A stretch of 64,000 nt of DNA. Origin: an uncultured Verrucomicrobiae bacterium. GTDB lineage: Bacteria > Verrucomicrobiota > Verrucomicrobiia > Chthoniobacterales > UBA10450. Position numbers and translations under genes: made by a program. This document shows positions 50,509-64,000 of the stretch, one piece after another. Each line of letters begins with the position of its first letter. The stretch's first letter is position 1. The notes under the pieces are model-generated. The model searched no databases. It was given only the letters and a program-made list of their open reading frames with translations, and had not been told where the DNA came from. The DNA lies in the NCBI GenBank assembly GCA_963834385.1, contig CAWIBO010000005.1, positions 320,001 through 384,000 on the forward strand. Direction: 5' to 3'.

Positions 50509-50907
50509 TTATTCGGCCAGGAGGGCTTCGCAGGCTTTGACGCACCGGTGGCAGGCCTCGGCGCAAACCCGGCAATGCTCCATCTTTTGCCCGTGTTTCT
50601 CACAGTGCGCACCGCAAATGCGGCAGGCCTCGATGCAGGCCCGAAGCTGCGCGCCCGCCAGCTTCTTGTCGGTGCGGGTCAGGCGGGAAATAATGCGCGC
50701 GGTGGCGAGACAGACGTCGGCGCAATCGGTGTTATCGCGAATACACTCAACCAGTGAAGCCACTTCCTTTTCGCCGAGGCAGGCATCGGCGCAGGCGTTG
50801 CACGCCTCGGCGCAGGAATAGCAGGCGGTGATGCACTCGATGGCGACGCCCCGGTCCGATGAAGGATGCACCGGGTGCGTCTCGAACATTTGTTTGATGT
50901 AACTCAC
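50509..50907 (-). CDS. Cys-rich four-helix-bundle copper storage protein (Csp3/DUF326-like)
   Basis: Repeated CxxxCxxCxxxCxxCxxxC, DCADVC, CEKH...HCRVCAEAC; no signal peptide. Confidence 0.88.
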   Translation of the reverse strand: MSYIKQMFETHPVHPSSDRGVAIECITACYSCAEACNACADACLGEKEVASLVECIRDNTDCADVCLATARIISRLTRTDKKLAGAQLRACIEACRICGAHCEKHGQKMEHCRVCAEACHRCVKACEALLAE

Positions 50908-51724: not shown

Positions 51725-54062
51725 ATGACACCTTCCCAATCCGCCACCGCCGCTCGCGACCCGGTCTGCGGCATGACCGTCCAGCCCGAGGAGGCAGCCG
51801 GAAGCCTGGAGCACGAGGGGACGACATACTATTTTTGTTCCGCCGGTTGCCGGGAAAAATTCAAGTCCGACCCGGAGCGTTACCTCGGCGAATCGGAGGG
51901 CGGCGCTTGCTGCGGTCACGCGGCGACGGCACCGGCCGAGGCGGCGCCGGGCGCGATTTACACCTGCCCGATGCATCCGGAGGTGGAACAGGAAGGGCCG
52001 GGAGACTGTCCGATCTGCGGCATGGCCCTGGAGCCGAAGAATGTCGCGGCCGGTTCCGCGCCGGATAACTCCGAGCTGCGCGACATGACCAGGCGTTTCT
52101 GGGTCGGGGCGGTTCTCAGTCTGCCGGTCTTTCTGCTGGCCATGGCGCATCTCTGGCCAGACGCGCCCGGGTGGTTGGAAGGCGAGTTTTCGCGGTGGAC
52201 CCAGTTTCTCCTGAGCACGCCGGTGGTGCTCTGGTGCGGCTGGCCTTTTTTTGTGCGCGGCTGGCGCTCGGTCCAGAACCGGTCGCCCAATATGTTTACC
52301 CTGATCAGCATCGGGGTGGGGGCGGCTTACTTCTACAGCGCGGTGGCCATGCTGGCGCCCGGTCTTTTCCCAGCCGCTTTCCTCGAGCATGGCCGCATCG
52401 GCGTTTATTTCGAGTCGGCCGCCATCATCACGGTGCTGGTTTTGCTCGGCCAGGTTTTGGAACTGCGGGCGCGGGAACGCACGGGCGGCGCGATCCGGGC
52501 GCTTGCTCGATCTCGCGCCGAAGACCGCGCGGGTGGTGCGCGATGGCGCGGAGGAGGAGGTCTCCCTCGAGGAGGTGCGGCGCGGCGACCGGCTCCGGGT
52601 GAAACCGGGCGAGAAAATTCCGGTGGATGGCGAGGTCACCGAGGGCCGCACCAGCGTGGACGAGTCGATGATCACCGGCGAACCCATCCCGGTGGAGAAA
52701 GGCGAGGGCGACCCGGTCACGGGCGGCACGGTCAACCAGACCGGCAGCATCGTGCTGGAGGCGCGCCGGGTGGGGAACGAGACCATGCTGGCGCAGATCG
52801 TGGAGATGGTCGCGCAGGCGCAACGCAGCCGGGCGCCGATCCAGGGCGTGGCTGACAAGGTGGCGAAGTTTTTCGTCCCGGCCGTCATTGCCTCCGCCGT
52901 GGTGACTTTCGGAATCTGGGCCGGTGTCGGGCCGGAACCGCGCTTTGCCCATGCCATCGTGAACGCGGTCGCCGTGCTCATCATCGCCTGCCCCTGCGCG
53001 CTTGGGCTGGCCACGCCGATGTCGATCATGGTCGGGGTCGGGCGCGGGGCGCAGGCCGGCATCCTGATCAAGAAAGCTGAGGCGATGGAGCTGTTGGAAA
53101 AGGTGAAAACGCTGGTGGTGGATAAGACCGGCACCCTCACCGAAGGCAAACCGGTTTTGCGCGAGGTGATTGAGACCGGGGGAATGGCCGCGGACGACGT
53201 CCTGCGGATGGCGGCGTCGATCGAGGCGCAGAGCGAGCATCCGCTGGCGGGCGCGATCGTGGCCGGCGCGAAGGAACGGGGACTCGACCTGGAAACGGTG
53301 GAAGATTTTCAGTCGGTCACCGGGGGCGGCGTGCGCGGCACCGTGGCCGGGCGGCGCGTGGTCGTGGGCAAACCAAGTTTCCTGGAAGACGAGGGCGTGA
53401 CCGGGCTGGAAGCGCTGGAAGGGCCGGGGACCGGACTGCAGGAGGAAGGGCAGGGGGTGGTTTTCGTGGCGGTGGATGGAAAAGCCGCCGGTCTGCTGGC
53501 GGTGTCGGACCCGATCAAGGAATCGACCCCGGCCGCGATCAAGGGACTGCACCGGCTCGGGTTGAAAGTGATCATGCTGACCGGGGACAACGAACGCACG
53601 GCCCGCGCGGTCGCGCGTGAGCTGGGGTTGGACGAGGTGGAAGCCGGGGTGGAACCGCAGCGCAAAAATGAGCGGGTGCGCCAGTTGCGCCGGGGCGGGG
53701 GACTGGTGGCGATGGCGGGGGACGGCATCAACGATGCGCCGGCGCTGGCCGCGGCCGATGTCGGCATTGCCATGGGAACGGGGACCGACGTGGCCATGGA
53801 GAGCGCGGGAGTCACCCTCTTGAAAGGCGATCTGCGGGGGATTGAAAAGGCCATGCGGCTGAGCCGGGCCATGATGCGGAACATCCGCCAGAACCTGTTC
53901 TTCGCCTTTGTCTATAACACCATCGGCATTCCGGTCGCCGCCGGTCTGCTTTACCCCTATTTCGGTCTTCTCCTCAGCCCGATGATTGCCGGGGCGGCCA
54001 TGAGCCTGAGCTCGGTCTCGGTGATCGTGAACGCCCTGAGACTGCGCGCCTTGAAATTATAG
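51725..54062 (+). CDS. copA: Cu(I)/Ag(I)-translocating P1B-type ATPase with YHS and YTCPMHP domains; +1 frameshift near 52503
   Basis: DPVCGM/YYFCS..C, YTCPMHP..CPICGM, TGEP, CPC, DKTGT, SEHP, GDGIND, YN, MSLSS. Removing one base at GCGCTTGCTCGAT restores AIRALLDLAPK. Confidence 0.9.
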
Positions 54063-57050: not shown

Positions 57051-58313
57051 TCAGTCGCCCCCAGGCGGCAGGTCCGCTGCTTTCCAATCCATCGCGCGAC
57101 GAATACGACTGCGGCCGCTTGGGTGATCGAAAAAGATGATTTCTTCTAGCTGCGTCGGTTCGAGTTTGCGATAGGCGCCCAGCTTCAGCGCGACCGTGGC
57201 GGCCGCGTCGGGCTCGCGCGCCGTGTTCAGGGCAAAGGCATCGGCCTCGTGCTCGATCGTCCGGATGATCGTGTTGGTCACCGGGGTGAGCACGAGGAAA
57301 ATGGCGGCGATAATGAGCGAGAGCAGCGGCAGGCCCGCGGGATCGGAAATCCCGCGCACACCCCAGGTCGCGCCCCAGCGTCGCAGGGCCACGTCAAAGG
57401 CAAGCCGCGTCAGGCCAAAAGAGACAAAGAAGAGGACACCGAATGCGAACAGGAGTTTGACCGTGTGGCCGAGGATGTAGTGCCCCATCTCGTGGGCCAT
57501 GACGAGGCGGATCTCCGGGAGAGAACATTGTTTAAGGAGATTGTCGTTCAAGGCGATGCGAGTGGTGCCGAGAAAACCGGCCACGTTGGCGCTGATCCGC
57601 TTGGTCTGGCGGGAAGCGTCGACCTCGAAGACCTGGTCGACCGGGATCTGGTTGGCGCGGGCCATGGCCAGGATCGGGTCGCGCAGTTCTGGCTGGGTCA
57701 ACGGCTTGTAGGTGTTAAAGAGGGGCTCGATGTAGACCGGCGCGATCATGGCGAAGAAGGCGAAGAAAAGGACGCAGACCGCTGTGGCCCAAAGCCACCA
57801 GGTGCGCGGCGCGCGCCGGAAAACGGCGTAAAGGATCACGAAGAGGACGGAAAAGGCCACGAGGTTGATGAGGAAGGCGAGGAGTTGTTCGCCGAACCAT
57901 TGCGGGAAGGTCTGCGTGGCCATGCCGTAGGCATGTTCGCGGACAAAATATTGGTACCAGGTGAGAGGAAAGGCCAGAATGGCGCTGATGGTGACAAATG
58001 AGATGACGTAAAGGACCGTTTGCAGCCATTTCCAGCGGGCCCATTGTTCCGCGCGATTACGGAGGTAGGCGGAGAGCCGCGTCGTGAGGAGGAGCAGAGA
58101 GATCGCGGCCGTGACGAGAAAATTCCAAAGGATCAGCCAGTAGCCCCCCTCGAAGTAGGCCTCAGAGCGGGCGCGTGTTTCCGCCGGCACGGTGGCGAGC
58201 CAGGCGGCAGTGGCCTCGGCCGGCGCGAGTGAGGCGGCGGCAGCGGGTGTCGCGGCCGGGACGGGCGGGACGTCCTGCGCGAAAGCCGAGGCGCCGAGGC
58301 AAAGGCTCGCCAT
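57051..58313 (-). CDS. M48 (Ste24-like) metallopeptidase (start uncertain)
   Basis: PLFNTYKPL, VDASRQTK..SANV.G, HEMGH, E.EAD, DHPS...RI. Confidence 0.9.
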   Translation of the reverse strand: MASLCLGASAFAQDVPPVPAATPAAAASLAPAEATAAWLATVPAETRARSEAYFEGGYWLILWNFLVTAAISLLLLTTRLSAYLRNRAEQWARWKWLQTVLYVISFVTISAILAFPLTWYQYFVREHAYGMATQTFPQWFGEQLLAFLINLVAFSVLFVILYAVFRRAPRTWWLWATAVCVLFFAFFAMIAPVYIEPLFNTYKPLTQPELRDPILAMARANQIPVDQVFEVDASRQTKRISANVAGFLGTTRIALNDNLLKQCSLPEIRLVMAHEMGHYILGHTVKLLFAFGVLFFVSFGLTRLAFDVALRRWGATWGVRGISDPAGLPLLSLIIAAIFLVLTPVTNTIIRTIEHEADAFALNTAREPDAAATVALKLGAYRKLEPTQLEEIIFFDHPSGRSRIRRAMDWKAADLPPGGD

Positions 58314-58873: not shown

Positions 58874-59060
58874 GGATGAATTTGGAAGCCAGGAAAGCAG
58901 GAAGGGAATGAGGATGGAGGATGGAAGATAGAGGATAGCGAAGTGATCACCGACCACTGATCGCCGATCACCGATCACCGATCACCGATCAGATCAGCGT
59001 GTCAGCGTGTCAGCGTTTCCCCTCAGCGTGTCCAGCTCCCAAGCTCCCAGCTCCAAGCCC
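58874..59060. repeat. Patchwork of short tandem repeat arrays (9-mer, several 7-mers, 8-mer)
   Basis: GAATTTGGAAGCCAGGAAAGCAGGAA (unit A of the 44-kb element); (AGGATGG/AAGATAG)n; (ATCACCG)n; (TCAGCGTG)n; (CCAGCTC)n. Confidence 0.9.
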
Positions 59061-59062
59061 CG

Positions 59063-60055
59063 CTACCGCCCCGGCGCCAGCCGTTCCTGCAACAAAACAT
59101 TTGCCCCGCTTTTCACCCGCCGCACAACCTCCACCGGTCGCCCGGCTCTTCCCGTCTCCCGCACAACCAGCTCATCGCCTTCCATCCGGGCAAACCCTGG
59201 ACCAACCTCAACGAGCGCAGGCCGCGCCGCCGCCATGACGGCAAGCGCGTCGAAGACCGGTCCGCCCTCGAGGCCGAGCCACTTCGTCCAGAACCAGAGC
59301 CAGAACCCACTGCGTTTCGCGACAAACCGGCTTCCCGCCCGGTCGTTGGTCAGCATGGCTTCGCGCGTCCCGGGGCGCAGACGCAGACCGGCCGCCACCT
59401 CGATCGGAACCAGCAGCAACCGCGCGGGCCCGGCCAGGACGCGGCCCGCCGCCGCCGGATCCTTCACCACATTGGCGTCGCTGATGGTGACATGGCGGGT
59501 CCGGCCAAAACGAAGAGCGTCGGAAGGCCGTCGTCCGCCGAGAAAGATCACGCGCCGCAACCGGCGCGCGCTTTCGGGATGCTGCGCCTGGAACGCCGCC
59601 AGGTTGGTCAAGGGACCGAGGGCGATGTAGGTGAGGTTTGTTTCCTTTTCGAGCGCCCGCGCCAGGGCGCGGCTGGCCGGACTCGGGTCGAACCGGCCCG
59701 GCCCGGCTGCTCCCTCGTAAACCGGCACCTTCTCCGCCCGGGCGGCCCGGCGCAGTTCTTCCATGACAGCGCCCGTGCGCGCGAGCGAAGCGTTTCCGTA
59801 GGTGGTGCTGATTCCCACCAGGCGAAGCTCGGGACTGTGCCGGGCCAGCAGAAAGGCAAAGGCATCGTCCACCTCCCGCCAGGGAGCCCCGAGCGAGGGA
59901 TCCATGTCGAGCCAGACCGCGGTGGACGCATCCAAGGCCCGGGCACCGGCGAAAAACAAAAGGAACAGGGTCGCCGGGAGGGAAAGAGCTTTCCAAGGGC
60001 AGGTGAGACGAACAAAATTGGGGCGGCCAAGCCTGGAGAACGAACTGATGCGCAT
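59063..60055 (-). CDS. Nucleoside hydrolase (inosine/uridine-preferring family); start uncertain, signal-like N-terminus
   Basis: WLDMDP......VDDAFA (DxD...DD), GISTTYGN, IALGPLTNLA, DANV.KDP.A, VFDALA. Confidence 0.85.
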   Translation of the reverse strand: MRISSFSRLGRPNFVRLTCPWKALSLPATLFLLFFAGARALDASTAVWLDMDPSLGAPWREVDDAFAFLLARHSPELRLVGISTTYGNASLARTGAVMEELRRAARAEKVPVYEGAAGPGRFDPSPASRALARALEKETNLTYIALGPLTNLAAFQAQHPESARRLRRVIFLGGRRPSDALRFGRTRHVTISDANVVKDPAAAGRVLAGPARLLLVPIEVAAGLRLRPGTREAMLTNDRAGSRFVAKRSGFWLWFWTKWLGLEGGPVFDALAVMAAARPALVEVGPGFARMEGDELVVRETGRAGRPVEVVRRVKSGANVLLQERLAPGR

Positions 60056-60776
60056 ACTGAAGATTCTATTGTTGACCGTGATGACCCTGGCGGCCACCGC
60101 GGAGAGCCGGGCCGCGGACGCGCCCTGGACGGAAACCTACGCCGACCTCTTGAAGCGTTACGTCACGCCGGAGGGAAACGTCCGTTACCAGGCCTGGAAA
60201 GCGAACGGCGCCGATCTCCGCCGTCTTAATCAGGTGGTGCAGGGGATCGCCGGGGCCGACCTGGGCCGGATGAACCGCGCCGAGCAGCTCGCCTTTTACC
60301 TGAACGCCTACAACGCCTGGATTCTGCATGAAGCGCTCGAGAAATATCCGACCAAGTCGGTGAAAGACCTTCTCTTCACCTTTTTCCTGAGCAACCGGCT
60401 GACCGTGGCGGGGGAGAAGATGAGTTTTAATCGGCTGGAGAAGGATATCATCCGCCGGAAATTTGATGAGCCGCTGATCCATTTTGCGCTCAACTGCGCC
60501 AGCCAAAGCTGCCCGCCGCTGCTGGACGAGCCTTACCGGGCCGGGAACCTCAAAGCCACCATGGAAAAGCAGACGCGCGCCTTTGTGAACTCGCCGCGGG
60601 GCGTGGTGGTCGATGGGAAAACCGCGCGGCTCTCGAAGATTTTCGATTGGTACAAGGAGGACTTTCCCAAGGGTGACGTGCTGGGCTTCGTTAACAAATG
60701 GCGGAACAAACCGATTCCGGCCGGGGCGAAGATCGAATACCAGGATTACGACTGGGGCTTGAACGCGGCCCGCTAG
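60048..60776 (+). CDS. Secreted DUF547 domain protein
   Basis: Signal peptide; LAFYLNAYNA, IHFALNCASQSCPPL, SKIFDWY.EDF, YDWGLN. Confidence 0.92.
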   Translation: MRILKILLLTVMTLAATAESRAADAPWTETYADLLKRYVTPEGNVRYQAWKANGADLRRLNQVVQGIAGADLGRMNRAEQLAFYLNAYNAWILHEALEKYPTKSVKDLLFTFFLSNRLTVAGEKMSFNRLEKDIIRRKFDEPLIHFALNCASQSCPPLLDEPYRAGNLKATMEKQTRAFVNSPRGVVVDGKTARLSKIFDWYKEDFPKGDVLGFVNKWRNKPIPAGAKIEYQDYDWGLNAAR

Positions 60777-60781
60777 AAATC

Positions 60782-62227
60782 ATGGTCGCCCTGGTGGACA
60801 CGAGCACGGAGAGACGGCCGCATTGGCGGGCGCGCTGGCATGCCTTTCGGCATCCGATTCATGAGGAAAAGGCAAAGGTCCTGCGGGAGCGCTGGGAAAC
60901 GTTGCCGGCTGAGCTGCGCACGCCGAACCAGATTTCCGGGCGTCACCTGACGCATTGCGGGTTCACCCTGGGCGCGAGCTATTGTTCCTTTCATTGCACT
61001 CATTGTTATCTGCCGAAGAACGCGAACGAGATTCCGATCCCGTCGCTGGAGCAGGTGAAGGAGCAGATCGACGCCAACCGCCGTTTGCAGGGGCCGGGGG
61101 GCGGACTGCAAATCACGGGGGGCGATGTCGCCGACGCTTATTGGAAGAGTGGGCGGGGCGATGAACTGATCGAGATCGTGCGCTACGCCTACTCGGTCGG
61201 ATCGATCCCGATGCTGATGACGCACGGGCAGACGTTGCTCGAGCAACCGCAGTTCCTCGAGCGCCTCGTGGTGGAGGCCGGGCTGCGGCAGATCTCGGTG
61301 CACGTCGACATGACCCAGGCCGGGCGTCATGGCTATCCGATCGGACGGATCAAGTGCGAGGCCGATCTGCATCCGGTGCGCCAGGCTTTCACCGACCTGG
61401 CGCGCGACATCCGGAAGCGCACCGGTTTCCCGCTCGAGTATGCGCTGAGCTTCACCGTCACCCGGCGGAACATTGACGATGTGCCGGAAGTCATCCGCTG
61501 GTATCTGGCCGACCCGGAACGGTCGCTCATCTGGCGCATGCTCAGTTTCCAGCCCGAAGCCGACACCGGGCGGACGATTTTTTCGCAGCGTCCCATCACC
61601 GCGGCCGATGTCTGGGAGAAGATCTGCGAAGGCGTGGGCCTGCCTTTGCGCCGTGACGTTTCGATCTTCGGGCATCCCGATTGCAACAGTTGGGCCTCGC
61701 TCATGGTGGCGCGGCCGTCGGGCGCGATCCTGCCGCTGCTGCCCGATGACAAAAAGTTTGATGTGATTCTTGGCGAGGTGCTCGAGCGGATCGGCGGACT
61801 TTCCCTGGTGAACGATGATGCCGGCACGCCGCCTTACCGCCTGGCCGGGGTCCTGTTCCAGAACCCGCTCCTGGCGCTCCGCCTGGCCGGTCGGTTGCTC
61901 GGTTATTTCACTTCACGCAAGGCGCCGCCCGAGATTCTGCGCTCGATCCTGCGCGGCCGGGTGCATACCCTCGGCGTCGGCATGCATAATTTCATGGGCG
62001 CGGAACAAGTGGCACGGGCGGGGAGCGATCCCGTGATCAAGGCGCGGCTTGATTCCTGTGTCTTCAAGGGAGCGGTCAAGCGCGACGGCAAATGGGAGGC
62101 CGTCCCGATGTGTTCCATGAACCAGCAGACCTGGTCCGAGGTTTACGACGAACGGCTGCGCGACCCCGAGCTTCTCCAGCAGTCGCAGGTCAACCGGCCC
62201 CAGGTCGCCGCCGCGGCGGCGGATTGA
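60782..62227 (+). CDS. Radical SAM protein of unknown specificity
   Basis: CSFHCTHC (CxxxCxxC), QITGGD, LMTHG, HVD..Q, SFQP...GR, HPDC, C-terminal RLDSC...VPMCSMN. Confidence 0.85.
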   Translation: MVALVDTSTERRPHWRARWHAFRHPIHEEKAKVLRERWETLPAELRTPNQISGRHLTHCGFTLGASYCSFHCTHCYLPKNANEIPIPSLEQVKEQIDANRRLQGPGGGLQITGGDVADAYWKSGRGDELIEIVRYAYSVGSIPMLMTHGQTLLEQPQFLERLVVEAGLRQISVHVDMTQAGRHGYPIGRIKCEADLHPVRQAFTDLARDIRKRTGFPLEYALSFTVTRRNIDDVPEVIRWYLADPERSLIWRMLSFQPEADTGRTIFSQRPITAADVWEKICEGVGLPLRRDVSIFGHPDCNSWASLMVARPSGAILPLLPDDKKFDVILGEVLERIGGLSLVNDDAGTPPYRLAGVLFQNPLLALRLAGRLLGYFTSRKAPPEILRSILRGRVHTLGVGMHNFMGAEQVARAGSDPVIKARLDSCVFKGAVKRDGKWEAVPMCSMNQQTWSEVYDERLRDPELLQQSQVNRPQVAAAAAD

Positions 62228-62234
62228 TTCCGCT

Positions 62235-62984
62235 GTGGCCTCGACCGCACCGGAGCACGAGGCGGGGCCGCGCGTCAGCGTGATCATTCCGGCCTGGGGC
62301 GACTCGGTCAGCCTGGCCGCCATTTTACCGACGCTCGAGGCGTTGCCTTTGCACGAGATCATCGTGGTGGATGTCTGTGCCGACACGGCGGACTGCCGGC
62401 TTCCGGGCGGCGGACGGGCCCGGTTGATCTGCACCTGTTCGCCGAGCCGGGGCCGGCAGATGAACCTTGGCGCGGCGGCCGCCGAAGGCGATGTGCTTGT
62501 TTTTCAGCACGCCGACACCCTTTTCTCGAGGGAACATTTGTCGGCGCTGAAGGCGGCCCTGCGCGACAACGCCTCGATCATCGGCGGCGCCTTTCATCGC
62601 CGGTTTGATGGGCGCCATCCGCGGCTGCGCTGGCTGGAGAAAGTGGCGCGTTTCCTTTCCCGGCATGGCGGCACCCTCTTTGGAGATCAGACCGTGTTTG
62701 TCCGGCGCGAGGTGTTTCAGCGGTTACACGGGTTTGCCGAGATCCCGCTGATGGAAGATGTGGAGTTTTCCCGGCGCCTGCGCGCCGCCGGACGGGTGGT
62801 GGTGCTCGATCCGCCCGTGGAAACATCGCCCCGCCATCACCAGGAGAACGGCGCCTGGCGCACCAGCATTCGGAACGGCCTTTTCCTCCTCCTCTTCCGT
62901 CTCGGCGTCTCAGCCGAACGATTGCACGCATGGTATTACCGTCGCCCGCGGCCGGATGTGGGCGCGGCGCCCGTCGGCGCGTGA
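62235..62984 (+). CDS. GT2 glycosyltransferase, TIGR04283-like (arsenosugar biosynthesis-associated)
   Basis: VSVIIPA, R.RQMN.GA, F.HADT, GGAF, FGDQ..FVRR..F..L.GF.EIPLMEDVEFSRRL, TS.R. Confidence 0.88.
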   Translation: MASTAPEHEAGPRVSVIIPAWGDSVSLAAILPTLEALPLHEIIVVDVCADTADCRLPGGGRARLICTCSPSRGRQMNLGAAAAEGDVLVFQHADTLFSREHLSALKAALRDNASIIGGAFHRRFDGRHPRLRWLEKVARFLSRHGGTLFGDQTVFVRREVFQRLHGFAEIPLMEDVEFSRRLRAAGRVVVLDPPVETSPRHHQENGAWRTSIRNGLFLLLFRLGVSAERLHAWYYRRPRPDVGAAPVGA

Positions 62985-63002
62985 GGGGCGGGAATGAAGG
63001 GG

Positions 63003-63228
63003 CGTGAATCGTAAATCGTGAATCGTGAATAGTGGGGAGCTCCCCCGGTAGGGCGACGCTCCGCGGAGCCTGAGAGCACGCGCCGCCAGCTAACCGGAGG
63101 GACGAGCTTCCGCTCGTCCATGGACCTGCGGAAGCAGGTCCCTCCGTAAGAAAAATCCCCCTATCTCAGTGCCCTCTGTGTCCTCCGTGGTAAATCCCTC
63201 CGCGCCCTCTGCGCCTCTGCGGTAAAAA
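63003..63228. repeat. Intergenic cluster: 7-mer run, REP-like inverted pair, 9-mer arrays
   Basis: (CGTGAAT)x4 at ~63003-63030; REP pair 63096..63119 and 63122..63145; CTCAGTGCC-CTCTGTGTC-CTCCGTGGT and CTCCGCGCC-CTCTGCGCC-TCTGCGGT at 63165..63228. Confidence 0.85.
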
Positions 63229-63229
63229 C

Positions 63230-64000
63230 TCAGAGAAGCGCCCCGCCGCAGCTCGACCCCGCGCCCGCAGTGCACCCGAAACAATGTTCGCCGGTCTGGA
63301 TCTCACGCTCTTCCACCGTCTCCGGATCGATCTCCCAGAGATGCAGACCGCGGTCGCCGTCACGCCACTGCATCTTCAGCATCTGATTGAAATCGCAATC
63401 AAAGACCTCGCCCTGCCAGCTCACGTTGATGGTGTTCCGGCACATCAGCCCCTCGACCGTCGCCGGGTTGAAGGCGTCGTTCAGGAGCAACATGTAATCG
63501 GCCAGCTGCCCGTTGTTCTTCAACCAGGAAGCAAAACGCGAGACCGGGAGGTTCGTGATGGTGAAGAGCTTGTTGAAGACGATCCCGAAATGTTCCTGCA
63601 ACTCCCGTTTGTAATCGGCTTCCAGCTCCGCCTGCGGCCCGGGCAGGAACGCGCCGTTCGGGTTGTAAACCAGATGGAGCGGGAGCCGCGGGTCGGTCCC
63701 GTAACCGAGGCTGTTCAGAAGCTGCAATCCCTTGATGCTGCCGTCGAAAACGCCTTCCCCGCGCTGGGCGTTCACGTTCTCGGGCGAATAACAGGGCATC
63801 GAGGCAATGACCTCGATCTCGTGCTCCGCGAGGAACTGCGCGTAATCCTCAAAACCGGGCTCAACCAGGATGGTGAGGTTGCAGCGGTCGATGATGTGCC
63901 GCGGCGGCGTCAGCGCTTTGAGGCGGCGCACCAAATATTTGAAGTCGGGAATCATCTCCGGCGCGCCCCCGGTCAGGTCGACCGTCGGAATGTCGGTCCG
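63230..64000 (-). CDS. arsS: Arsenosugar biosynthesis radical SAM protein ArsS-like (DUF3641 C-terminus); 5' end outside window
   Basis: DLTGGAPE, RCNLTIL, ASMPCY, QRG.GVF..SI, LVYNP.G..LP..Q..LE.DYK, ITNLP..RF, MCR, DCDFNQ, HCFGCTAGAGSSCGG. Confidence 0.9.
   Translation of the reverse strand, partial: RTDIPTVDLTGGAPEMIPDFKYLVRRLKALTPPRHIIDRCNLTILVEPGFEDYAQFLAEHEIEVIASMPCYSPENVNAQRGEGVFDGSIKGLQLLNSLGYGTDPRLPLHLVYNPNGAFLPGPQAELEADYKRELQEHFGIVFNKLFTITNLPVSRFASWLKNNGQLADYMLLLNDAFNPATVEGLMCRNTINVSWQGEVFDCDFNQMLKMQWRDGDRGLHLWEIDPETVEEREIQTGEHCFGCTAGAGSSCGGALL

Follow-up and report, generated by a model that had tools for sequence, protein, structure and literature searches.

A predicted-exported nucleoside hydrolase and a Tes-like radical SAM enzyme in an ArsM/ArsS-type organoarsenic gene cluster of a Verrucomicrobium

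The stretch of DNA analysed here (the window; 64,000 nucleotides of contig CAWIBO010000005.1 from an uncultured Verrucomicrobiae bacterium) ends within an ArsM/ArsS-type organoarsenic gene cluster. We tentatively propose, at somewhat less than even chances, that a predicted-exported nucleoside hydrolase encoded in this cluster cleaves adenine from a 5'-substituted adenosine (e.g., dimethylarsinoyl-adenosine, DDMAA) outside the cytoplasm, with the MTA phosphorylase MtnP performing the biosynthetic step.

Gene content of the cluster

The preliminary description had reported an ArsS-like radical SAM enzyme converging on an operon of a DUF547 protein, a second radical SAM enzyme and a TIGR04283-like GT2, with a nucleoside hydrolase divergently adjacent. 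Sequence and profile searches confirmed all five genes in this layout, with scores over curated or Pfam cut-offs except for the second radical SAM enzyme, which reached 26 bits against PF04055 (cut-off 29.5) and lay far under every NCBIfam cut-off. The features are as follows, those past position 64000 being given in extended window coordinates:

59063..60055, minus strand: nucleoside hydrolase of the IU family, from a Chthoniobacterales-type clade; export predicted, start codon not certain (PF01156, 123.7 bits, cut-off 34.2)
60048..60776, plus strand: DUF547 protein with a signal-peptide-like N-terminus, start ATG 60048 (PF04784, 91.5 bits, cut-off 27)
60782..62227, plus strand: radical SAM enzyme with a GDGT-MAS/Tes-like core and a C-terminal domain (CxxxCxxC motif)
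62235..62984, plus strand: TIGR04283 glycosyltransferase (GT2; 193.3 bits, cut-off 182)
63230..64000, minus strand: 3' part of the ArsS radical SAM enzyme (TIGR04167); the whole gene spans 63230-64189 and starts 189 nt past the window
about 64186-65310, minus strand: PiT/PHO4 transporter (PF01384, 208.7 bits)
65312-66190, minus strand: MIP channel (aquaporin; TIGR00861, 187 bits, cut-off 171.25)
66201-67358, minus strand: ArsM-type methyltransferase (385 aa, 14 Cys)

The 256 aa of ArsS within the window score 361.3 bits against TIGR04167 and the whole protein 441.4 bits (cut-off 300). The gene is the last of a same-strand operon that extends past position 64000 and comprises the arsM-type methylase, the aquaporin, the PiT transporter and arsS. 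An arsM-type gene and a TIGR04282 gene, both of which the preliminary description had suggested seeking beyond the window, are present in the genome. The arsM-type gene lies just past the window end and encodes a protein whose top matches are ArsM models, each under its cut-off (NF040538 349/500, NF008823 206/263, NF038099 132/400); the same form of methylase sits upstream of arsS in Cupriavidus. The TIGR04282 protein is encoded on another contig (C2) and exceeds the cut-off in profile search (163.3/134). A search for sigma-70-like promoters found 0, with 1.2 expected.

The longest open reading frame of the hydrolase begins at GTG 60097, which would give a 50-nt overlap with the DUF547 gene, and the gene therefore more likely starts at ATG 60055, where the head-to-head overlap is 8 nt, or at a non-canonical codon further on. 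The tight divergent junction is also present in relatives, where the hydrolase motif lies 108-194 nt from the DUF547 start.

ArsS has been described as producing DDMAA from dimethylarsenite (PMC13598754; PMC8552651). The closest known system, ArsM and ArsS of Synechocystis sp. PCC 6803 together with the NCBIfam families TIGR04167, TIGR04282 and TIGR04283, has its counterparts here in ArsS, the TIGR04283 and TIGR04282 proteins and the ArsM-type methylase. The names of homologs and loci (Chthoniobacterales) agree with a verrucomicrobial origin of the DNA. The present locus differs in its host, a soil-type Verrucomicrobium, in its longer methylase, which falls under the AsSugarArsM cut-off, and in the addition of the hydrolase, the Tes-like radical SAM enzyme and DUF547, all three of which are absent from the annotation of the Pseudanabaena arsM-arsS locus.

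Active site and predicted location of the hydrolase

The hydrolase falls under all Rih/UriH cut-offs and sits on a long branch of the tree; its AlphaFold model (pLDDT 90) found the plant NRH 4kpn as best match in Foldseek (E 3.7e-23). With the IU hydrolases (RihA and RihB of E. coli, trypanosomal IAG-NH, plant NRH) it has in common the fold (TM about 0.73), the Ca2+ ligands and the nucleophile-positioning Asn, and residue mapping indicates that the Ca2+/ribose core is kept (DxD...DD, GN, GPLTN, the Asn166-equivalent and the last Asp). The clade differs from these enzymes by a 7-residue insertion within the fingerprint (119/120 homologs), an invariant WxxFW helix, a signal-peptide-like N-terminus and three substituted positions of the active site. 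In RihA, Asn158 and Glu164 are reported to bind the ribose 5'-OH and His239 to act as proton donor (PMC2898832). Among the 118 motif matches in 120 hydrolase homologs, the Glu164 position is Asp in every one and Asn158 is kept in 2, the mapping of Asn158 being less sure than that of Glu164 because its position falls within a loop that carries a gap. The His239 position is Phe in 117 of the 120 homologs. An aromatic residue at this leaving-group position is given as a mark of purine-specific hydrolases in a source that also describes very poor turnover of 5'-deoxy nucleosides by ordinary hydrolases and catalytically inactive members of the fold (PMC8910321). Judged by these residues, the active site appears suited to purine ribosides modified at the 5' position, as would be expected for a 5'-substituted adenosine.

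A hydrophobic N-terminal stretch was present in all 110 hydrolase homologs of sufficient length, the 10 others being too short; the signal-peptide-like N-termini of both the hydrolase and DUF547 were assigned by eye and a hydropathy rule rather than by a dedicated predictor. The caveat attached to the preliminary description, that export would imply a periplasmic or salvage role, is the likelier interpretation, and we favour periplasmic salvage over a biosynthetic role of the hydrolase.

Distribution of the hydrolase and its linkage to arsenic genes

Co-occurrence was counted in 221 genomes of the host's family, 72 with and 149 without the hydrolase, all of them kin, so that the independence of these counts is overstated. 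ArsS was matched in 152 of the 221. Canonical ArsS was no commoner in genomes with the hydrolase (49/72) than in those without it (103/149, OR 0.95), and 103 ArsS genomes had no hydrolase match; in genus g192 the hydrolase was found in 0/35 and ArsS in 33/35 genomes. Hydrolase-ArsS co-occurrence was accordingly rejected as simple support, and the link returns only when an ArsS-like paralog is added: ArsS or this paralog is present in 65/72 hydrolase genomes vs 107/149 without the hydrolase. The paralog and ArsS are nearly mutually exclusive, and among the 69 ArsS-negative genomes the paralog occurs in 16 of 23 with the hydrolase vs 4 of 46 without it; seven hydrolase genomes have neither. The best genome-level correlate of the hydrolase was the radical SAM gene (68/72 vs 35/149).

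In 22/72 genomes at least one of arsS, the radical SAM gene and arsM was found no more than 10 kb from the hydrolase, and of the 11 genera with the hydrolase 7 show a physical tie to the cluster. The other 50 of the 72 copies, some of them on short contigs, were not found within this distance, and many copies away from the cluster adjoin lpxI-like or kefC-like genes. The association of the hydrolase with arsS was supported by physical linkage and, for canonical ArsS, not supported at the level of whole genomes. In a sample of the phylum that includes few close relatives, the hydrolase was found in 1/401 genomes, that of the host, and a plasmid search returned two distant matches at 27%. Arsenic-linked copies appear in several branches of the tree and at its root, with long branches and weak support, and we claim no order of events.

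These data bear on the rather unlikely alternative that the hydrolase is a general periplasmic salvage enzyme for purine or other ribosides, or an inactive ribose-binding protein, which hitch-hikes on a mobile island and is unrelated to arsenic. The three different chromosomal contexts, the lack of enrichment with ArsS alone, the status of the hydrolase as the sole member of its family in the genome and the inactive members described for the fold (PMC8910321) are in line with it. On the other hand, tight linkage recurs in 7 genera despite changing gene order, the hydrolase tracks the radical SAM gene and the ArsS-like paralog, and the clade-wide change of the 5'-OH ligands would harm ordinary nucleoside turnover.

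Probable adenine removal by MTA phosphorylase

MtnP (TIGR01694) scored over its cut-off in the host genome, on another contig, and in 5/5 relatives, and is located inside the arsS clusters of Cupriavidus sp. KK10 and Acinetobacter portensis, where it fills the slot matching that of the hydrolase. MtnP removes adenine from 5'-substituted adenosines, as is proposed for the hydrolase; in contrast to the latter it is a cytoplasmic, phosphorolytic enzyme of an unrelated family, and is described as converting 5'-deoxyadenosine to the 1-phosphate (PMC8102628). The hydrolase is a poor fit as a biosynthetic deadenylase because of its predicted signal peptide and because its product would be a free sugar, and MTA phosphorylase is the better candidate for this step. 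Of the preliminary proposal that the hydrolase removes the adenine, the fit of the active site to such a substrate has been retained, and the biosynthetic role has lost ground.

We consider it unlikely that the hydrolase is nevertheless the committed deadenylase, a non-orthologous replacement of MtnP that cuts DDMAA, perhaps in the periplasm, with the free arsinoyl-ribose being re-imported, phosphorylated and glycosylated. Such a role would agree with where the hydrolase gene lies in several lineages, either closing an arsS operon or head-to-head with the DUF547, radical SAM and TIGR04283 genes, with the different N-glycoside-cleaving enzyme that fills this slot in other arsS clusters, and with the altered 5'-pocket. 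It is opposed by the signal-peptide-like N-terminus in 110/110 homologs, whereas ArsS and the transferases are predicted to be cytoplasmic, by the loss of the 1-phosphate on hydrolysis, by the 103 ArsS genomes of the family without a match, among them those of g192 (hydrolase in 0/35, ArsS in 33/35), and by the presence of MtnP in the genome anyway. Incidental inspection of the loci also brought no sugar kinase to light.

The Tes-like radical SAM enzyme and DUF547

A stronger lead than the hydrolase is offered by the second radical SAM enzyme, which has a GDGT-MAS/Tes-like fold, is paired with DUF547 and occurs in ArsS-type clusters. Its closest solved fold by profile and structure is that of Tes/GDGT-MAS (MJ0619; PDB 7tol, 7tom; NF045702), with a profile match to 7tol at E 4.5e-25, a Foldseek match at E 8.9e-16 and a structural match of Z 29.8 in VIA (rmsd 3.6, 356 aligned; next family Z 17.1). 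Both proteins contain the radical SAM core and a C-terminal auxiliary-cluster domain with three aligned Cys: the motifs around Cys301 and Cys426 were found in 120/120 close homologs and 32/32 long representatives, and Cys444 is nearly invariant in a 31-row alignment. The enzyme differs from Tes in its low identity (about 22%) and in having neither rubredoxin nor the N-terminal [4Fe-4S]N cluster motif; one Cys precedes its radical SAM motif, and CxxC is absent there in the 120 close homologs and the long representatives. Tes Met439 and Tyr459, whose roles are treated in PMC9433317, are replaced by His and Gly, as counted in an alignment with a 20-residue tag offset. NF045702 gave no match to the enzyme at E 0.001, and four homologs scored 43-84 against a cut-off of 450. 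The names Tes, TrsS and pterin dimethyltransferase, the last carried by some JGI homologs, were rejected, given the missed cut-offs and the absent N-terminal motifs.

The DUF547 gene is single-copy in the genome; by sequence the protein has no solved relative, and an Atlas search returned DUF547 clusters only. It accompanies the radical SAM gene in 77 of the 80 closest loci. Its proposed link, together with the extra radical SAM enzyme, to the pathway is supported by the recurrence of the pair in ArsS-type clusters across phyla from Verrucomicrobiota to Proteobacteria, including those of Burkholderia, Roseomonas and Cupriavidus (28-32% identity). Within the 80 closest radical SAM loci, arsS lies within 10 kb in only 10, most being located at a zwf/opcA-like site, and a paralog group (57-66%) is mostly without arsenic neighbours. 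The radical SAM enzyme is fused to TIGR04283 in some relatives (P0107, P0111, P0114, P0115); P0287 and P0384, which look like fusions of the radical SAM enzyme with DUF547, have a lipoprotein-type signal stretch in their interior and were counted as adjacency rather than true fusion. DUF547 and the lipid-synthase-like radical SAM enzyme are candidates for the missing steps of arsenolipid synthesis.

A bolder reading, which we regard as quite doubtful, would make the Tes-like enzyme the missing arsenolipid synthase itself: it would abstract hydrogen from a lipid terminal methyl as GDGT-MAS does, the alkyl radical would be captured by the dimethylarsenite of ArsM, and terminal dimethylarsinoyl fatty acids or hydrocarbons would result, with DUF547 and the exported hydrolase as an envelope arm. 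Least probable of all, the hydrolase might act on excreted radical SAM by-products (5'-deoxyadenosine, MTA) instead of an arsenic nucleoside, with the DUF547-radical SAM pair modifying an ordinary membrane lipid and merely co-regulated with the arsenic genes: the radical SAM gene as best correlate, the suitability of the altered 5'-pocket for 5'-deoxyadenosine, the report of this compound in cyanobacterial culture supernatant (PMC8102628) and the location of most pairs in the family away from arsenic genes would fit, but in Proteobacteria and in further Chthoniobacterales families distant homologs of the pair are part of ArsS-type clusters and form fusions with TIGR04283, and ArsM is present in 86/103 genomes with the radical SAM gene vs 35/118 without.

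Proposed pathway and significance

In the reading that we prefer, with extracytoplasmic cleavage by the hydrolase and biosynthesis through MtnP, the PiT transporter and the aquaporin would admit arsenate and arsenite, ArsM would form dimethylarsenite and ArsS would convert it to DDMAA, as shown for the cyanobacterial enzymes. MtnP would turn DDMAA into 5-arsinoyl-ribose-1-phosphate, the CofC-like TIGR04282 protein would activate this sugar phosphate and TIGR04283 would transfer it to an acceptor. The Tes-like enzyme and DUF547 would serve as an accessory pair, likely acting on the lipid acceptor or product of TIGR04283, as suggested by fold, fusion and neighbourhood, and the hydrolase would reclaim adenine from excreted or environmental DDMAA. 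No exporter of DDMAA was identified, which counts against this proposal.

[quoted passage not shown] The reviews consulted give no steps towards oxo-arsenosugars other than SAM-dependent methylation and adenosylation by ArsS, and an adenosyl nucleosidase step has been proposed in the literature without a gene. The locus and its relatives supply candidates: MtnP and the hydrolase for adenine removal, TIGR04282 and TIGR04283 for activation and transfer, and the Tes-like enzyme for the lipid step. Ocean data have led to the suggestion that bacteria are a source of arsenolipids (10.1101/2021.03.22.436501). Should the Tes-like enzyme prove to be an arsenolipid synthase, arsenolipid production by soil Chthoniobacterales and some Proteobacteria would have gone unnoticed. 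Given the occurrence of ArsS in more than two thirds of the sampled family genomes (152/221), such bacteria could make a large and so far unrecognised contribution to organoarsenic cycling.

Gene content of the arsenic locus

The preliminary description had placed an ArsS-like gene convergent to an operon of DUF547, a second radical SAM enzyme and a glycosyltransferase, with a divergent nucleoside hydrolase adjoining it, and all five genes were found as described. The locus is real and represents a variant of the ArsM/ArsS system, which continues beyond the end of the window (G000:C5:320001-384000; coordinates in window numbering):

59063-60055, minus strand: IU-family nucleoside hydrolase (PF01156)
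60048-60776, plus strand: DUF547 protein
60782-62227, plus strand: second, Tes-like radical SAM enzyme
62235-62984, plus strand: TIGR04283 transferase
63230-64189, minus strand: ArsS, running past the window end
about 64186-65310, strand as arsS: PiT transporter, beyond the window
65312-66190, strand as arsS: MIP channel, beyond the window
66201-67358, strand as arsS: methyltransferase of 385 aa, with ArsM models as top matches, all below cut-off
contig C2 of the same genome (G000): TIGR04282 gene, 163 bits against a cut-off of 134

An ArsM-type gene, assigned by best match and position, is thus present in the genome, which is 2.9 Mb in size and 89.6% complete and, judging by homolog names and locus titles, belongs to Chthoniobacterales.

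Short low-complexity repeats occupy 58940-59060, after the hydrolase, and 62985-63230, between the converging operons. A second TIGR04283-type gene (G000:C5:391559-392469; L001:15560-16467), located 4.2 kb past arsM, is divided between two frames covering profile positions 1-106 and 100-213 and is either a pseudogene or an assembly error. The stretch between arsM and this gene (G000:C5:387400-391560; GC 0.556 versus 0.643) looks like an insertion; it holds a Phd-type antitoxin followed by a small ORF that we take to be RelE/ParE-like, as well as a presumably HNH-like ORF. Within the window, a gene at 51725-54062, presumably for a heavy-metal P-type ATPase, is apparently split over two frames near 52400-52850, possibly a second frameshift in the assembly, and adjoins a small Cys-rich protein (50509-50889).

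Features and distribution of the hydrolase

The hydrolase is the sole PF01156 protein of the genome, and its model shows the usual fold (pLDDT 90). Residue roles were mapped by aligning the family profile to E. coli RihA, with roles taken from PMC2898832. The Ca2+ ligands and the Asn positioning the water are retained, and both 5'-OH ligands are altered. Among the 120 listed of 285 homologs found, the position of RihA Glu164 is Asp in 118/118 motif matches, Asn158, which falls in a gapped loop, is retained in 2/118, His239 is replaced by Phe in 117/120, and the DxDxxxDD fingerprint carries 7 extra residues in 119/120. One review states that purine-specific nucleoside hydrolases are distinguished by an aromatic residue in place of this His, and that the hydrolases studied act poorly on nucleosides without a 5'-OH (PMC8910321). 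Taken with the altered 5'-OH ligands, these rules make the clade look like purine riboside hydrolases with a remodelled 5' pocket. A hydrophobic stretch, read as a putative signal peptide, precedes the first motif in 110/110 homologs whose N-terminal sequence is long enough (10 were too short).

One sample of 221 family genomes, G000 among them and each at least 80% complete, was searched with six queries, each genome being scored on its first 7-12 candidates; kin among these genomes are not independent, and the tallies include four unpublished genomes (G406, G519, G539, G616), on which alone no claim rests. ArsS was found in 152 genomes, TIGR04283 in 177, ArsM-type genes in 121, the second radical SAM enzyme in 103 (paralogs counted in) and the hydrolase in 72. 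The expected co-occurrence of hydrolase and arsS failed at the genome level, as ArsS was present in 49/72 genomes with the hydrolase versus 103/149 others (OR 0.95), and genus g192 combined ArsS in 33/35 genomes with the hydrolase in 0/35. A link emerged once an ArsS-like paralog with 22-27% identity, a radical SAM gene revealed by reading the arsM regions of ArsS-negative genomes, was added: at least one ArsS type occurred in 65/72 hydrolase genomes versus 107/149 others. This paralog was detected in 22 genomes, 20 of them ArsS-negative; among the 69 ArsS-negative genomes it was present in 16/23 with the hydrolase versus 4/46 without. It often adjoins arsM and is accompanied by a DUF2064 gene, a flavoprotein and a metallophosphoesterase, as exemplified by L211:3781-8523 (G488:C2), which 21 other genomes resemble.

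The hydrolase also tracked the second radical SAM gene (68/72 versus 35/149) and ArsM (58/72 versus 63/149). At least 19/72 genomes had it no more than 10 kb from arsS, and at least 22/72, from 7/11 genera, had it that close to one or more of arsS, arsM and the radical SAM gene; these are lower bounds, as 20 ArsS matches fall outside the ArsS table and many contigs are short. In a non-random set of 73 hydrolase-clade loci, 11 were too short to judge and 28 arsenic-linked, 23 adjoined a presumed lpxI-like gene, 10 adjoined a presumed kefC-like gene and 1 had another context, six of the 62 judged loci being present twice. That the hydrolase is unrelated to arsenic or inactive appears somewhat unlikely. 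To judge from N-terminal resemblance, the M48 peptidase gene near the hydrolase (57051-58313) apparently also borders arsS in genus g198 (L171, L172, L175, L177), and the arsenic island of G000 and this genus may share a common chromosomal site.

Adenine removal in ArsS clusters

A plasmid search with ArsS returned 53 records, 48 of them from Burkholderia, and five of these loci were read. Plasmid p1 of Cupriavidus sp. KK10 (L246:5967-16666) carries a single unannotated run of genes: PiT-like, ArsM-type, peroxidase-like, ArsS, MerA-like, VTT-like, TIGR04283, TIGR04282, the MTA phosphorylase MtnP (TIGR01694, 276 against a cut-off of 275), a homolog of the second radical SAM enzyme (29% identity) and DUF547-like, the "-like" labels being our presumption. 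The cluster of Acinetobacter portensis comprises arsS, DUF547, TIGR04283, TIGR04282, a methyltransferase, PiT and a convergent mtnP. Thus, mtnP was near arsS in 2/5 loci; in B. thailandensis, Pseudanabaena and Hymenobacter the surroundings of arsS showed neither a nucleoside phosphorylase nor a nucleoside hydrolase by annotation. As these two clusters contain mtnP, adenine-removing enzymes are indeed recruited into ArsS clusters. MtnP is also encoded by G000 (302 bits) and 5/5 relatives.

MtnP converts 5'-deoxyadenosine to the sugar 1-phosphate (PMC8102628). This would be the form needed by a CofC-like nucleotidyltransferase. The earlier proposal that the hydrolase deadenylates dimethylarsinoyl-adenosine (DDMAA), the ArsS product, is partly upheld: it is best read as periplasmic cleavage of DDMAA, a tentative but plausible role. 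A committed biosynthetic step is unlikely, since the hydrolase is predicted to be exported and would yield free sugar, and MtnP is better suited to cytoplasmic adenine removal. Action of the hydrolase on radical SAM by-products is very unlikely.

The DUF547-radical SAM pair

Among the 80 closest loci of the second radical SAM enzyme, DUF547 was present in 77, TIGR04283-like genes in 16, ArsM in 13, ArsS in 10 and the hydrolase in 6; 57-59 of these pairs lie at a site that we take to be zwf/opcA-like. In the 10 loci with the lower identities of 70-74%, the transferase adjoined or lay one gene off in 9, arsS was near in 6 (two probably one genome) and the hydrolase was absent. Still more distant homologs (30-32%) occur in B. 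thailandensis, where they adjoin DUF547 and arsS, and in Roseomonas, where the neighbours are DUF547, TIGR04282 and a 34% relative of the ArsS-like paralog. Sampling across the class (251 genomes) yielded three matches from beyond the family, of which one belongs to a complete ars operon, one adjoins DUF547 only and one stands alone; in a paralog group (57-66%) arsenic neighbours were mostly missing. Therefore, these neighbourhoods and distant homologs identify the pair as an accessory module that occurs widely in ArsS-type clusters and is often sited elsewhere.

On the B. thailandensis plasmid (L237:5700-11018), arsS, a YiiX-like hydrolase, the Tes-like enzyme and DUF547 occur with no annotated arsM near; 47 Burkholderia plasmids matched the Tes-like enzyme and 48 ArsS, B. 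glumae plasmids among them. Larger clusters (L179-L182, L191-L195, L205-L209) add a MerA-like flavoprotein, VTT/DedA, fatty-acid hydroxylase, rhodanese, a transglutaminase-like protein and a second, more distant DUF547; the hydroxylase and VTT among these genes may point to lipid handling. Literature on arsenosugars, ArsS, DUF547 and nucleosidases or phosphorylases, mostly outside subscription journals, yielded no assignment of the extra genes, nor did passages of PMC10456119, PMC12159101, PMC13598754, PMC8552651, PMC8787705 and 10.1101/2021.03.22.436501.

The second radical SAM enzyme

The closest solved relative of this enzyme is GDGT-MAS (profile E 4.5e-25, Foldseek E 8.9e-16), which superposes on its model (pLDDT 92) with Z 29.8 and rmsd 3.6 over 356 residues, the next family reaching 17.1. 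Its three C-terminal Cys align with GDGT-MAS Cys. The enzyme is not a Tes, because Met439, Tyr459 and the metal motifs of the N-terminus, whose roles are described in PMC9433317, are missing. At least four database proteins fuse the transferase to it. From its fold, a lipid substrate may be proposed. Known arsenic fatty acids and hydrocarbons bear their arsenic terminally, the position from which GDGT-MAS takes a hydrogen; on this is based the speculative and rather unlikely idea that the Tes-like enzyme takes part in arsenolipid formation. Among the unknowns of the locus this enzyme is more interesting than the hydrolase, and the KK10 cluster offers a convenient cultured model.
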